Below are positions 6,206-18,649 of a stretch of DNA of 20,000 nucleotides, piece by piece. The notes under the pieces are model-generated. The model worked only from the letters and a program-made list of their open reading frames with translations, had not been told where the DNA came from and searched no databases. Both the position numbers and the translations under genes were made by a program. Every line of letters begins with the position of its first letter. Positions within the stretch are counted from its first letter, which is position 1. Source of the DNA: Chiloscyllium plagiosum (taxonomy: Eukaryota); contig NC_057718.1 of assembly GCF_004010195.1 (NCBI RefSeq), positions 59,021,666-59,041,665 on the forward strand. Direction: 5' to 3'.

Positions 6206-7133
6206 TGCTCTGCAGTTTGAGAGAGGTGAAATGTGGGCTTAATAAGCAAGAGTATATTACAGGAATTACAGGGCAGCTATTTGGATAATGATACCCAGAA
6301 CATACAAATATGGAAACAAAAAGCAGAAATTAGGTTCAAGAGGGGAAATAATGATAAAACGGCACAAGTAATGGCTTTAAATTTGAATGCGCATAGAATT
6401 TGGAATAAAATAAATGCATGAACCACACAAATGCAGGAAAATGGCTATGATCTTATAACCAATACAGAGACATAGTTACAAGGAGACAAGGAGATCAAAG
6501 CTGGGAACTAAATACTCATGGGTATGTTACTTTCTGAAAAGGATAGCATATTTGCTACTGAATGGTACAAGCATGATAGCAAAACATTATCTTGAATTGA
6601 TAAATATAGAATCCATATGGATGGAGCTAAGTAATATAAAGAAAAGAACACAGTAGGAGTAGTCTATATGCCCCTGAGCAGTAGATATACAATGGGATGG
6701 GGAATAAATCAGGAGATAATGAGGCATATAGCAAAGGCTGTACATTAATCATGGGTGGCTTTAATATTCATGTAAATTTGGATTTTTTGGCAGAGGAAGC
6801 CATAAGGAAGAATTCACAGAGCACATTGAAGATAGTTTCCTAGAACAATATGTTGTTGGTCCAGCCAGGTGTGAGATTATTTTGCCTCTGGTGATGTTTA
6901 AAGAGGCAGATTCAATAAATGATATTATAGTAAAAGAGGCCTTCAGAAACAATGACCATAACATGGTAGAATTTAACATTCAGCTTGAAAGAAAGGAACC
7001 AGGGTTGGAAACAACTATGTAGATTTAAATAAGGAATAATTACAAGGAATGAGACTAAAGCTATCTGTTTTGGATTGTACAAAGTTAAAAATCACACAAC
7101 ACCAGATTATAGTCCAACAGGTTTAATTGGAAG

Positions 7134-7168
7134 CACTAGCTTTCTGAGCTCTGCTCCTTCATCAGGTA
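7134..7168 (-). ncRNA. Minimal type-I hammerhead ribozyme motif (core intact)
   Basis: Minus strand reads TAC-CTGATGA-A-GGAGC aga GCTCA-GAAA-GC-TA-GTG: CUGAUGA and GAAA boxes, stem II hairpin, self-complementary AGCU stem III and short stem I. Confidence 0.7.
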
Positions 7169-7170
7169 AC

Positions 7171-7205
7171 CACCTGATGAAGGAGCAGCGTTCCAAAAGC
7201 TAGTG
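7171..7205 (+). ncRNA. Minimal hammerhead ribozyme motif, mutated (GAAA->AAAA)
   Basis: CAC-CTGATGA-A-GGAGC agc GTTCC-AAAA-GC-TA-GTG. Stem I is CAC/GTG, and the G12 loss is consistent with CpG decay. Confidence 0.6.
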
Positions 7206-7646
7206 CTTCCAATCAAACCTTTTGGACTATAACCTGGTGTTGTGTGATTTTTAACTTTGTGCACCCCAGTCCAACACCAGCATCTCCAAATCATGTAATG
7301 GATTGGAGAAGGAGTTTAGCAGCAAAGATAGTTGAGGAACATTCCAGAAAATAGTTCATGGCTGAGAGCAAATACAAATTCCAATGAGTAAGAAGGATTC
7401 TAGGAAGGGGATAAGCTAACCATGGTTAACCAAGGAAGTTAAGAATAGCAACAGATTGCAAAATAAAATGTGGCAATGATTGATGGTAAGGCAGAGGATG
7501 ATCAAAAATGACCATAAAAGTAATGAGGGAGAAAAAAAAAAAATAAGGGTAAACTTGCAAGTAATATTAAGACAGATAGAAGGGCTTCTTTAAATATATA
7601 AAAAGGAAGAGAGCAGTCAAAGTTAATATAGGCTCCTTAGAGATTG

Positions 7647-7831
7647 AGATTCTGGATCAATGGTGCTGGAAGAGCACAGCAGTTCAGGCAGCAAACCCGC
7701 ACCAATCAACCAAACCGCCCCGTGGCCCAACATTTCAACTCCCTCTCCCACTCTGCCGAGGACATGGAGGTCCTGGGCCTCCTTCACCGCCGCTCCCTCA
7801 CCGCCAGACGCCTGGAGGAAGAACACCTCAT
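7647..7831 (+). mobile_element. Penelope-like element fragment (GIY-YIG C-terminal region) preceded by an inverted terminal-repeat piece, cut by the gap
   Basis: From ~7694 it encodes TRTNQPNRPVAQHFNSLSHSAEDMEVLGLLH...RRLEEEHL (PVA.HFN motif of PLE endonucleases). 7647-7693 read on the minus strand gives TGCTGCCTGAACTGCTGTGCTCTTCCAGCAC, a PLE terminal sequence. Confidence 0.8.
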
Positions 7832-8385
7832 NNNNNNNNNNNNNNNNNNNNNNNNNNNNNNNNNNNNNNNNNNNNNNNNNNNNNNNNNNNNNNNNNNNNN
7901 NNNNNNNNNNNNNNNNNNNNNNNNNNNNNNNNNNNNNNNNNNNNNNNNNNNNNNNNNNNNNNNNNNNNNNNNNNNNNNNNNNNNNNNNNNNNNNNNNNNN
8001 NNNNNNNNNNNNNNNNNNNNNNNNNNNNNNNNNNNNNNNNNNNNNNNNNNNNNNNNNNNNNNNNNNNNNNNNNNNNNNNNNNNNNNNNNNNNNNNNNNNN
8101 NNNNNNNNNNNNNNNNNNNNNNNNNNNNNNNNNNNNNNNNNNNNNNNNNNNNNNNNNNNNNNNNNNNNNNNNNNNNNNNNNNNNNNNNNNNNNNNNNNNN
8201 NNNNNNNNNNNNNNNNNNNNNNNNNNNNNNNNNNNNNNNNNNNNNNNNNNNNNNNNNNNNNNNNNNNNNNNNNNNNNNNNNNNNNNNNNNNNNNNNNNNN
8301 NNNNNNNNNNNNNNNNNNNNNNNNNNNNNNNNNNNNNNNNNNNNNNNNNNNNNNNNNNNNNNNNNNNNNNNNNNNNNNNNNNNNN
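7832..8385. other. Assembly gap (554 N)
   Basis: Run of N. The ORFs that span it are artefacts. Confidence 1.
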
Positions 8386-8574
8386 AGTTCATGGAATGCC
8401 CTGTCAGTAGCAGTGGTGGACTCTCCCTCTTTATGGGCATTTATGCGGGCATTGGATAGGCATATGGAGGATAGTGGGCTAGTGTAGGTTAGGTGGGCTT
8501 GGATCGGCGCAACATCGAGGGCCAAAGGGCCTGTACTGCGCTGTATTCTTCTATGTTCTATGTTCTATGTTCTA
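8386..8574 (+). mobile_element. Relatively young CR1 3' end with (TTCTATG)n tail
   Basis: SWNALSVAVVDSPSLWAFMRALDRHM (CR1 ORF2 C-terminus), 3' UTR GGCGCAACATCGAGGGCCAAAGGGCCTGTACTGCGCTGTA with retained CpGs, and tail repeats at 8549-8574. Confidence 0.9.
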
Positions 8575-9280
8575 GGTGCAACGGGCGGTGAAGAAGGCAA
8601 GTGGTATATTGGCCTTCATAGCAAGAGGATTCAAGGAGAGGAGCATGGATGTCCTGCTGCAACTATACAATGCCTTCGTGAGACTGCATCTGGAGTATTG
8701 TGTGCAATTTTGGACTCCTTATCAAGGGACAGATACTCTGGCTAGTTAGGGGTGCAATGAAGATTTACCAGACTCATTTCTGGGAATGACAGATCTGGTG
8801 TACGGGAAGAGACTGGACTAGATAGGTCCAAATTTATTAGAGTTTAGAAGAACGAGATTGGGTGGTCTGGGAGTAGTAATCTCATAGATACCTATAAAGT
8901 TCCAGCAGGATTAGACAGTGTAGATGCAGGAAGTATGTTGTCAATGAGTGAGGAGTTTCCATCCAGGGTTCACAATCTAAACATTAGGGCTAGGCCTTTA
9001 AGGACAGAGATAAAGAGGAATTTTTTTTCACCCCCAGAGAGTGATGAGCTTGTGAAATTCTTTCCCACGGTAAACTGTTAAGGCCAAATCATTGCAGATT
9101 TTCAAAAAAGATGTAGCTATAGTTCTTAAGACAAAGTGTTCAAAACTTTCAAAGGGTATGGGGAGAAAGCAGGAGCAGGGTACCAAGTTGAATAGTCAGC
9201 CACAATCATATTGAATGGTGAACAGGCTTGAAGTGCTGAATGGCTAACTGCTGCTCCTACATTCTATGTCTCTATGTTTC
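8575..9280 (+). mobile_element. CR1 ORF2 C-terminal region and 3' UTR remnant
   Basis: VQRAVKKASGILAFIARG and LYNAFVRLHLEYCVQFWTP motifs. Ends GAATGGCTAACTGCTGCTCCTACATTCTATGTCTCTATG. Confidence 0.9.
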
Positions 9281-12447: not shown

Positions 12448-13519
12448 TTAGGGTGTAGGTTTGCTCGCTGAGCTGTAAGTTTGATATCCAGACATTTCAT
12501 TACCTGGCTAGGTAACATCATCAGTGGTGACCTCCAAGTGAAGCGAAGCTGTTGTCCCCTGCTTTCTATTTATATGTTTGTCCTGGGGTTTGTGGTGATG
12601 TCATTTCCTGTTCAGTATCTAGATCTATGTGTTTGTTTATGGCGTTGTGGTTGGAGTGCCAGGCCTCTCGGAATTCTCTGGCATGTCTTTGCTTAGACTG
12701 TCCCAGGATCGATGTGTTGTCCCAGTCGAAATGGTGGTTTTTTTCTTCTATGTGTAGGGCTACGAGGGAGAAAGGGTTGTGTCTTTTTGTGGCTAGCTGG
12801 TGTTCAGGTATCCTGGTGGCTAACGTTCTTCCTGTTTGTCCTACATAGTGTTTGTGGCAGTTCTTGCATGCAATTTTGTAGATGACGTTGGTTTTGTCCA
12901 TGGGTTGTGCTGGGTCTTTTAAGTTTGTTAGTTTTTGTTTGAGAGTGTTGGTGGGTTTGTGTGCTACTAGGATTCCGAGGGGTCTTAGTAGTCTGGCTGT
13001 CATTTCTGAAACTTCTTTGATGTGTGGTAAGGTGGTTAGGGTTTCTGGCTGTGTTTGGTCTGCTTGTCGTGGTTTGTTCTTGAGGAATCTGTGGACTGTA
13101 TTTTTTGAGTATCCGTTCATCTTGAATACGTTGTATAGGTGGTTCTCCTCTGTTTTCCGAAGTTCGTCTGTGCTGCAGTGTGAGGTGGCTCATTAGGATA
13201 TGTTCTGATACAGCTTCGTTTGTGTGTATTGGGATGGTTGCTGGTGTAGTTAAGTATTTGGAAAGTGTTTGTCAGTTTTCTGTATACGCAGCTTTGTAGT
13301 TCTCTGTTGTCCGTTCTTTCGACTGTGATGTCCAGGAATGCGAGTTTGTTGTTCATTTCTTCCTCTTTGGTGAACTTTATGTCTGTTGATGATGTTAAAT
13401 GTCTCTTCTATCTTGTTTCGTTTTGTGATGACAAAGGTGTCATCTACGTAGCGGACCCAGATTTTTGGCTTGATGGTTGGTAGGGCTGTTTGTTCTAGTC
13501 TTTGCATTACCGCTTCTGC
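12448..13519 (-). mobile_element. 5'-truncated Penelope-like retroelement (Penelope/Poseidon type): RT C-half + GIY-YIG endonuclease + terminal repeat, frameshifted
   Basis: WVRYVDDTFVI (RT catalytic YVDD), LAFLDITV, VYRK.T...LNYTSNHP, then NVIYKIACKNCHKHYVGQTGR (GIY-YIG with C-x2-C) and later His residues. 10-bp TSD TAAAGATGGT at 12438-12447 and 13520-13529. Confidence 0.95.
12488..12527 (-). ncRNA. Minimal type-I hammerhead ribozyme motif in the Penelope terminal repeat
   Basis: Minus strand reads CCA-CTGATGA-T-GTTACCT agcc AGGTAAT-GAAA-T-GTC-TGG: both core boxes, 7-bp stem II, GUC cleavage triplet and stem I CCA/TGG. Confidence 0.8.
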
Positions 13520-15209: not shown

Positions 15210-15493
15210 CCAGAACAGGGAGAAAGACCTTGTACTCTGATTAGAACAGACAGTTCCTTAGAGAGCTATTGTATGAAATAGAGAAGGGTGACCATGCATG
15301 CAAAGTCAAAGTGCAGAACCCAACCAACACAAGTTGGCTCATCATATATCAATTTTTCACAAACAGATTCTGATGTTCCTGCAATGAACCAGATACCATT
15401 TAATATGTACCAGACTAGTGAGTTTTAAGAAGATTTGCAGCTCAGGTTGCGGTTTTGGATGCAAGTTTGCTCACTGAGTTGGGAGGTTCATTT

Positions 15494-15532
15494 CCAGACA
15501 ATTCGTCACCCAGTAGGTAACATCTTCAGTGG
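15494..15532 (-). ncRNA. Degenerate hammerhead motif (left arm)
   Basis: Minus strand CCA-CTGAAGA-T-GTTACC tactg GGTGAC-GAAT-T-GTC-TGG, with GAAA mutated to GAAT. Confidence 0.6.
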
Positions 15533-16560
15533 GCCTCAGGTGAAGCAGTGTACATGATTCCTGCTTTCTATTTATATGTTTGGGTTTCTTTGTCATTTCC
15601 TGTGGTGATGTCAATTTCCTGTGATGAAGTCATTTCTGGTTCTTTTTCTCAGGGAGTGGTAGATGGGGTCTAACTCGATGTGTTTGTTGATCGAGTTCTG
15701 GTTGGAATGTCATGCTTCTAGGAATTCTCATGTGTGTCTCTGTTTGGCTTGTCCTAATCTGGATATGTATCCCAGTCAAAGTGGTGTCCTTTCTTATCTG
15801 TATGTAAGGATAATAGTGAGAGGGTCATATTGTTTTGTGGCTAGTTGGTGTTCATGTATCCTGGTGGCTAGTTTTCTGCCTGTTTGTCCAATGTAGAGTT
15901 CTTGCACGGTATTTTGCAGTGACATTAGTTTTGCTTGTTGTCTGTATAGGGTCTTTTATTTTCAAAAAGAATGGGTACCCAATGAACACAGTCCACCAAT
16001 TTCTCAGCAACAAACCCAAACAAGCAGACAAAACATGTCCAGAAAGCCTAGCCACTCTCCCCTACATTAAAGACATCTCGAAAATGACTGCCAGACTATT
16101 CAGACCCCTTGGCATCATGGTAGCCCCAAACTCACCAACACACTAAAACAGCAGCTAATGAACTTGAAAGACCCGATACAGACAACAAGCAAAACTAATG
16201 TCATTTACAAAATACTGTGCAAGATCTGTAACAAACACTACATTGGACAAATAGGCAGAAAACTAGCCACCAGGATACTGAACACTAACTAGCCACAAAA
16301 TGACATGACCCTTACTTACAGATAAGGAAGGACACCACTTCAACTGGGACACATATCCATCTTAGGACAAGCTAAACAGAGACACGCATGAGAATTCCTA
16401 GAAGCATGGCATTCCAATTGGAACTCTATTAACAAATACATCGAGTTAGACCCCATCTACCACCCCCTGAGAAAAAGAACAGGAAATGACATCATCAACC
16501 CAAAGAAACCCAAACATATAAATAGAAAGCAGCAATCATTTACACTGCTTCACCTGAGGC

Positions 16561-16599
16561 CCACTGAATATGTTACCTAATAGGTCACAGAACGTCTGG
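16561..16599 (+). ncRNA. Degenerate hammerhead motif (right arm)
   Basis: CCA-CTGAATA-T-GTTACCT aat AGGTCAC-AGAA-C-GTC-TGG. Core substitutions, but ACGT stem III and stem I are retained. Confidence 0.55.
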
Positions 16600-18649
16600 A
16601 AATGAACTCCCCAGCTCAGCAAGCAAATCTATATCCATGTACCAGATTATTCAGGATCTCCAATTTGTCCTTTTAAAAACTGCCCAACCCCACAGCCAAT
16701 TAACAAACTCCTAAAGGACTTTATTAGTTGTTTAGTGGAGGCTAAAGGACTTTCTGTTCCCTTCCAACCATGAATTTCAAACTGGCACAGAAGCTTTGGG
16801 ATCCTGAAACAGTCCTCAGAACTGTGTTCCAATTTCTGGTTATGCAGCCTACAAGTTTATAAAATGTTTGAAAGCTGGTTTCATGAGATACCTTAAAGTA
16901 GAACTTGCAATGCAAAATACAGAGTTTGTCATCATTTGTTTACTTCTACAACAGTGAGTTTTAAGGAAGTTAAAGTTTAAAAACAGGTTGAGATTTACCA
17001 AATTTGAGAGAGGTCTGAAGCTTTTCATTCTCCCTTTGTCTCCAGGCTCCTGCATGAAAGAATGTTCAGAGTGGCTCTCTTAAAATGGGTCAAGGACTTT
17101 TGAGGGTGAATTTTAAACATAGCTAGACAATAGGAGGGAGGTGGCCAAAATGCACTTGCTGCTTAACATTTAACCTCATTTAGAAGTTGCTGTCTTGATG
17201 GAGCTTACCAGAATTGGAAAAGTAGAAAATCATGCAGCTGTCATGTTGAGTCAGCAAACAATTGGAACCTCAGAGGCTCAAGATGGGATGATCTCATATC
17301 AATCTTGAGTGGGCTGGTAGCGAACTGGAATGTTTCTATGGGTGTTGAAGAAATACTCCTTTTCCTCCTGGCTCCGTCAACAAGAATTTAATTGGGTAAT
17401 TTCTAGATTCCCTTTAACCATCACTTGTTAGGCTGCTCCATACCTACTACTAGAAATAGTAGTATGTGTCTCACAAAATCGTTTTAATTGTATCTCAATA
17501 TTGCTGTGGATGTCCTGTAAATCTTATTGGACTTTAATTTGCATATTATATGGTCTCTAGACAGAAAAAGGACGGCACTCCAACTGCACATTGCAGGGAT
17601 TTAAACAAGGTGGTGATTGTGGGAAGCCTGAGAAAAATATGAAAGAAAGTGGAGGCCTCAAAGTTACTCTTCTGGAAGGATGGAAGTTTTGGAAAAATGA
17701 TCATCTAATCTGTATTTATTTCCTTCTCTCATTGTAGAGGAGGCTGTACAATGATCTTGCAATAGAATGAAATGGATATGATTTGCCCTATACTTTAGAT
17801 GCTAAAGAGACTTTAAATGACCTATGGTGGTATTTGTAAGAAGAACAGGTGGTTGGGTACATGCTTAGTGAAAGATTCCTGCTTGATAAAGAGGTTGAAG
17901 GTTGTTCGAGGAACAACTGGCCACAGGATCATTAAGTGATTGTTTGGCAGGGCTAAGGAAAATAAATATCGACTTGTTGCTTCCCATATTTCTAGGATCC
18001 TTATGTAATTCTCATCAACACCACCCATCCCCCCCACAACTTAACTCTTTCACTCTATCATGCATGTTACTATTTCCCCATTTCCAGATTCATCAAAGTT
18101 CTTTGAGCTCTTCGTGATACATGTACTTCAAATGTTTACAATTTTTATTTACTGTCTGTCATTATTGACAGCCATAGGCATAATAGGATCTAACTATTTT
18201 GTATAGATTTACCAAATTGTCTTGATGTTAGTACTTTTATGCTTCAGTTTATAAAATCCATTTGAAATTCAGATTTCAGTATAATACACTTCACAACTGC
18301 AGCTCTGTCAGACAATTGAATGTAAGTTGGTCATTCATTCTATGCAACCAGTTCTTCTTTAAACCCGGAATACCTGGACAGCAACATTTGCAAGCACTGA
18401 AAATAAAAATCCCATGTACAAATGAAAAGATCATGAACTAACATTAAAATATTCCATTGGTGCATCGTACCTGGTTTCATTTTAATGTTTAAAAATGATT
18501 AAACATTGCAGTAAATTCATAGCAATCAATTCACCTTTTATTTTTATCCATACATGTAGGATTTGTTAACAGAAAAATTACTGAGTGACCAATGTTTCAA
18601 TTTTAAATTGATATTGACCACATTGACAAATGCCTACTATGAATTAAAT

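Follow-up and report, generated by a model that had tools for sequence, protein, structure and literature searches.

A hairpin with hammerhead motifs on both strands is best read as one decaying Penelope-like insertion

Results

Overview

Within the window, a 20,000-nucleotide stretch of Chiloscyllium plagiosum DNA (contig NC_057718.1), the hairpin at 7071-7305 is, with a probability of roughly 85%, the product of one old, decaying insertion of a Penelope-like element (PLE), and not a moving or self-regulating unit. The earlier note had proposed a minimal non-autonomous PLE derivative that looks like a MITE and moves via RNA. The hammerhead type, the one-sided tail and two staggered 3′ ends uphold the first half of that proposal, namely that the sequence derives from a PLE end and arrived through RNA, not as a DNA MITE. 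Variable junctions, damaged ribozymes and a standard PLE insertion pattern speak against the second half, that the hairpin itself is mobile. The family is putatively assigned to PLEs by hammerhead type, tail and geometry. Feature coordinates are collected in Table 1.

Table 1. Features of the hairpin locus and of two other PLE insertions in the window.
Feature	Position	Strand	Remarks
Left target-site duplication TGGATTG	7071..7077	+	arm match includes the last 2 nt; may reach 7068
Inverted, tail-less, 5′-truncated PLE end copy (pLTR)	7078..7167	-	outer end 3 nt past 7081, where tail-less copies of the family end (3′)
Minimal type I hammerhead motif	7137..7165	-	core intact; G10.1-C11.1 broken (7145); junction cuts 5′ stem I strand
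4-nt centre, offset between two 5′ truncation points	7168..7171	+	loose ends at 7167 and 7168
Right arm, direct PLE end copy	7172..7263	+	pairs with 7076-7167
Minimal type I hammerhead motif	7174..7202	+	core 7174-7180, extra A 7181, stem II 7182-7194, 7195 G12 to A
Family poly(A) signal region	7212..7250 (mirror 7089-7127)	+	hexamer A-A/T-TAAA 7212-7217, cleavage near 7229-7232, GU-rich behind
One-sided tail	7264..7295	+	terminates at the family's main 3′ end 7293-7295, 35-37 nt past the tail-less end 7258
Right target-site duplication TGGATTG	7299..7305	+	7296-7298 filler or changed start of a 10-bp duplication
Host repeat, decayed LINE-like coding remnant	6300..7640	+	flanks repetitive; reading frame continuous across the duplication
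5′-truncated PLE, no inversion	12448..13519	-	RT end and GIY-YIG endonuclease, hammerhead motif near 3′ end, 10-bp duplication
PLE of another family, inverted	15415..16636	.	arms ~500 bp (80% alike), 41-nt one-sided tail, 10-bp duplication, GIY-YIG remnant

Anatomy of the hairpin

Of the 92 positions in each arm (7076-7167 and 7172-7263), 84 are complementary, the 91% originally described, and a repeat search returned the inverted repeat as 97 nt at 90%. Folding of 7071-7304 gave -147.9 kcal/mol (z -20.65), a stability reached by 0 of 200 shuffled sequences. The hairpin is the single representative of the arm family in the window, and no tandem array was found at its locus. Its centre, AACC, had been read as a loop; 4 nt do lie between the arms, but they are not a spacer. 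They are the native upstream sequence of the right arm, through which other copies continue and which pairs in stem I of the + motif, and the two arms are therefore truncated 4 nt apart. The tail, previously put at ~35 nt, does indeed occur on the right arm side only, where it runs from 7264 to ~7295 (32-35 nt). The whole insert measures 218-221 bp, and its two copies are cut back to about 90-128 nt, with no coding sequence remaining.

The duplication given earlier as TGGATT is present and extends to an exact 7-bp TGGATTG; as a chance control, a match of at least 7 occurred in 89 of ~100,000 random pairs. A 10-bp duplication with two later changes (7068-7077 and 7296-7305, 8 of 10 alike) is plausible, since 7293-7295 marks the 3′ end of the family and the duplications of the two neighbouring PLE insertions are each 10 bp long. 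The interrupted host repeat is presumably a CR1, to judge by its translated motifs; Pfam returned 0 families for 6768-7019 within it. An empty, insertion-free site was absent among the 15 joints displayed of 1,242. Farther along, at 7640-8575, a different insertion interrupts the host repeat, spans an assembly gap (7832-8385) and ends in a TTCTATG repeat (8549-8574).

A MITE, derived from a DNA transposon and bounded by long inverted repeats at its termini, would also be short and free of reading frames, with long inverted arms and a duplication of 7-10 bp, yet it is largely refuted and very improbable here: the 32-35 nt tail separates the right arm from the duplication, so that the repeats are not terminal and not flush with the duplication on both sides, and the family has two staggered 3′ ends, many single-arm copies and a PLE-type minimal hammerhead in the arm.

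The repeat family and its 3′ ends

Four public runs were aligned to 6950-7450 at 80% likeness: assembled contigs of organisms A, B and C (X1, X9 and X14) and raw single-cell RNA reads of A (X21). The aligned contigs numbered 94,351, 88,251 and 94,620, figures that count contigs and not copies and that are saturated for X1 and X14. The main, tail end at 7293-7295 was seen as a loose end with unrelated sequence beyond it in 2,684 (X1), 3,083 (X9) and 2,803 (X14) contigs, which implies at least thousands of insertions. A second, tail-less end at 7081, the mirror of 7258, was found in 512 contigs of X9 and 442 of X14; for X1 it was not among the six ends displayed. The family thus has two fixed 3′ ends about 35-37 nt apart. 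Core position A9 and the tail end are separated by 114-116 nt at the hairpin and by 109 nt in the neighbour at 15.4 kb.

Organisms B and C yielded contigs that carry the insertion junction, with 4 differences over 183 nt, 6 over 165 nt and 6 over 156 nt; the insertion is therefore older than the divergence of B and C from A. Pattern scans found 0 matches in viral contigs, in metagenome contigs and in prokaryote genomes. Joints at 7256/7295 and 7259/7081 represent tail-to-tail junctions of family copies; they occurred in 0-8 contigs per run and are the rarer orientation.

The inversion junction varies among copies

If the hairpin were amplified as a family, its copies should share the inversion point, but junctions differ and many copies are not inverted at this point at all. 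Copies that leave the reference at 7167 and continue natively numbered 440, 470 and 450 contigs in the three runs. Among the 15 displayed joints, 10 connect the left arm (ending at 7120-7166) to the right arm (starting at 7168-7231), each in 1-5 contigs per run; copies with exactly the hairpin's junction cannot appear as joints and so are not countable in this way, joints at 80% likeness can also stem from neighbouring separate copies, and assemblies break inside such repeats. Sixteen centre-spanning contigs occurred among the 24 pieces displayed of 266,925, all of them differing at 11-19% of letters. Thirteen need 1-9 gap letters and three need none (X1 records 2 and 3 and X9 record 17, with 14-19% of letters differing). 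The centre is thus mostly not fixed among copies, and the three gap-free contigs may represent a small fixed-junction subfamily.

These three contigs bear on the possibility that the whole hairpin is a non-autonomous element, transcribed and then copied as a unit by a PLE protein in trans, with a subfamily of fixed centre. Such copying would have precedents, as pLTRs alone are able to mobilise unrelated DNA in trans (PMC3846280, in excerpt) and non-autonomous PLE derivatives are known (PMC8557442 and bioRxiv 10.64898/2026.07.22.740005, both in excerpt). We nevertheless consider it unlikely. Varied junctions and native run-through speak against it; two of the gap-free contigs may be one orthologous locus, and clustering of 5′ ends can produce one register more than once. 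Of 3,805 RNA reads, no more than 15 fall entirely within 6950-7450, though hairpins amplify poorly, and neither arm showed a signature of its own, all 8 differences being one-sided (see below).

Past the centre, the native continuation is legible for ~10-12 nt and then blurs, which fits a clustering of 5′ ends a little upstream of the hammerhead. Beyond a spacer of variable length, however, two RNA loose ends have another short motif in common, so that some copies extend farther.

The arms decay independently

At 8 of the 8 arm mismatches, the family's commonest other letter at one arm restores the pair, with 3 changes in the left arm and 5 in the right; competition of the two arms for reads introduces some bias into the family majority letters. 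It follows that the arms started out identical or almost identical, each having drifted by ~4% since. Four of the 8 mismatches fall within the 29-nt ribozyme, compared with 2.5 expected (P of 4 or more = 0.21), and so there is no sign that it has been protected. None of the 8 mismatches shows a compensatory change, and no left-arm- or right-arm-specific signature was seen.

Both hammerhead motifs are damaged

Both arms have a minimal type I layout, consisting of CUGAUGA, an extra A, stem II and a palindromic AGCU that replaces stem III; the extra base between 9 and 10.1 and the palindromic 15.2-16.2 are present. A CTGATGA/GAAA motif had been claimed for each arm, and it is found on the - arm only. 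There, CUGAUGA and GAAA are kept, the closing pair of stem II is G-A in place of the conserved G10.1-C11.1, and the junction has removed most of the 5′ stem I strand. In the + motif, 7195-7198 reads AAAA and not GAAA: G12, the general base in hammerhead chemistry, was lost at a CpG, and G is the family's commonest other letter at 7195. The + motif retains the G10.1-C11.1 pair and the palindromic AGCU, its predicted cut falls after 7202, and AACC completes its stem I with 5 of 6 pairs. The two cores lie only 8 nt apart. On the strength of these lesions, neither ribozyme is likely to cut. An Rfam scan of the whole window reported no hammerhead and two chance-level matches elsewhere, which says little because minimal motifs lack stem III. 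RNA read ends showed no pile-up at the predicted cut site, in a library of a type unable to show one.

On either strand, the antisense arm is transcribed first and the sense hammerhead after it, starting beside the loop. In model folds, the pair probability of stem II was 0.0 in both full-length strands, as well as in transcripts stopped directly behind the ribozyme, and 0.15 and 0.004 in the single right and left arms. That each hammerhead is trapped by its own antisense arm is thereby confirmed in the model; the predicted sequestration is real but would be permanent, with no "on" state to switch to.

These observations leave little room for the idea that the locus is kept as a functional RNA, either as a ribozyme switch or as a source of small RNAs from its long duplex. 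Transcription through it would yield a 92-bp duplex that includes perfect stretches of 27, 18 and 17 bp, the insertion is common to organisms A, B and C, and Penelope inverted repeats yield siRNAs in transformed Drosophila (PMC3681739, in excerpt). Against this stand the damage to both ribozymes, the stem II probability of 0.0 even in transcripts cut directly behind them, the lack of compensation among the mismatches and, weakly, an RNA depth of zero at 7001-7068 and 7307-7340 in ~2% of one single-cell run, where transcription of the locus went undetected. We rate it as even less probable than copying of the hairpin as a unit. The possible self-regulating unit of the earlier note is accordingly not supported, given the lesions in both ribozymes and the uncompensated decay of the arms.

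Other PLE insertions in the window

Two further PLE insertions lie in the window (Table 1). The inverted one at 15415-16636 carries hammerhead-like motifs at 15529 (-) and 16564 (+), both damaged, and follows the same plan as the hairpin with coding remnants still attached; a hammerhead on each strand is therefore the result of any inverted PLE insertion. In the non-inverted one, the GIY-YIG frame occupies 12566-13189 (207 codons stop to stop), and the 206-residue frame matched GIY-YIG weakly in Pfam (E 0.002, below the curated cut-off) but strongly when judged by features (0.97). The coding remnants of the two insertions are 74% identical over 50 residues. Pfam searches with 10 fragments returned one relevant family only, below cut-off; weak matches to RnlA-toxin_DBD and Exonuc_X-T_C were taken as chance. 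At 12524 (-) there is an intact-looking minimal hammerhead, with an ATG at the start of stem II, like anole Poseidon.

Family RNA and a poly(A) signal

The RNA sample comprised 12,955,460 records, about 2% of one single-cell run of organism A. On 6950-7450 there were 3,805 records, only 90 of them at least 99% alike, and most RNA reads thus come from other copies. Reads with poly(T) accumulated at 7107 (863) and 7110 (653), which mirror 7232 and 7229. Polyadenylation thus affects the hammerhead-sense strand and takes place 12-15 nt behind an AATAAA/ATTAAA hexamer, just before a GU-rich stretch. Both common hexamer alleles, AATAAA and ATTAAA, are known poly(A) signals, and the poly(A) signal in the family end repeat is complete and in use in vivo. 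At the hairpin the hexamer is broken at 7214 in the right arm, and ATTAAA is kept in the left. Most of the poly(T) reads may come from one or a few host loci.

Discussion

The hairpin most probably formed by target-primed reverse transcription by a PLE protein, with the mirror half made at insertion. The protein would have cut the host repeat with a stagger of 7-10 nt, corresponding to the duplication that is observed. Reverse transcription would then have given a copy reaching from the tail site to a point 6 nt upstream of the hammerhead core, where the ends are seen. In the same event, a mirror copy that ends close to the tail-less site, its 5′ end being 4 nt shorter, would have been made and joined head to head to the first, as the anatomy displays. 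Priming of this second copy may have come from the nick in the opposite strand or from the first copy folding back, and we lean only slightly towards priming from two nicks, which would directly explain why one half has a tail and the other does not; the junction has no clear microhomology favouring either route. Both arms have decayed independently since. The hairpin would be rebuilt at each event without serving as a template, and the hammerhead would be on both strands solely because it lies inside the duplicated end.

Earlier publications already contain an inverted, 5′-truncated copy with a tail, pairs of minimal hammerheads on opposite strands, and siRNA derived from repeats of this kind. 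The first is a standard PLE feature, with tails of 30-40 bp (Craig et al. 2021, PMC8557442, in excerpt), and Adineta has inverted unequal pLTRs, a 31-bp tail and duplications of 8-10 bp (Arkhipova et al. 2013, PMC3846280, in excerpt); the same paper describes palindromic junctions in rotifer Penelopes, for which self-priming was proposed. As far as these excerpts go, the hairpin is like endonuclease-bearing PLE insertions in its head-to-head end copies, one-sided 30-40 bp tail, 7-10 bp duplication and unequal 5′ arm lengths, and unlike them in the shortness of its copies and their lack of coding sequence. Dual minimal hammerheads on opposite strands, 100-700 bp apart, have been ascribed to truncated PLEs, and the minimal type I layout has been described for metazoan PLEs (PMC4209133). 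The motifs in the hairpin agree with these in being type I, with an extra base at 9/10.1, a palindromic 15.2-16.2 without loop 3 and short spacing; they are closer together than the Schistosoma pairs (~100-700 bp), and both are damaged.

A further parallel is PAc, the Poseidon element of Anolis carolinensis (Frangieh et al. 2024, PMC11167929, in excerpt), in which the tail is bounded by two RT start sites and the enzyme cuts and extends both strands; hammerhead cleavage was dispensable for insertion in vitro. Similar to PAc, the hairpin family has two 3′ ends bounding an AC-rich tail, and its hammerhead-to-tail-end distance of 114-116 nt resembles the PAc starts, 111-118 nt into the ORF. The difference is that the family is known here from its end repeat. 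Animal non-LTR retrozymes (bioRxiv 10.64898/2026.07.22.740005, in excerpt) are likewise non-coding, with a type I hammerhead and a PLE origin. They consist of head-to-tail tandem units with complete hammerheads, which the locus does not contain, whereas the hairpin is a damaged head-to-head pair, and a retrozyme was therefore rejected. In open-access titles and abstract starts, no paper on a fixed palindromic PLE mini-family or on the hairpin family was found.

We tentatively raise one further possibility, although we hold it to be rather doubtful: that the stubs are "strong-stop" products. The RNA would start just upstream of the hammerhead, the enzyme would prime ~79 and ~115 nt inside it at its two start sites, once per nick, and both copies would run off the 5′ end of the RNA and be joined. 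Were this so, each mini-hairpin would record both RT starts and the RNA 5′ end, and the thousands of inserts would amount to a natural experiment on two-nick priming versus fold-back, an unsolved step in PLE integration. The poly(A) signal ~27-30 nt behind the ribozyme cut site would then mean that only read-through or 5′-pLTR RNA could be the template.

As a single locus, the decayed insertion described here matters little, being one among many thousands. It does serve as a caution that a PLE insertion can look like a MITE or a "double ribozyme". Taken as a population, the family could settle the way in which PLEs build their inverted ends, and through it poly(A) signals and repeats able to form duplexes are spread across the host genome.

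As a separate observation, T>C places numbered 22 in the RNA run X21 and 8-9 in the DNA runs; A-to-I editing of duplex-forming copies could produce this excess, and allele or copy differences explain it equally well.
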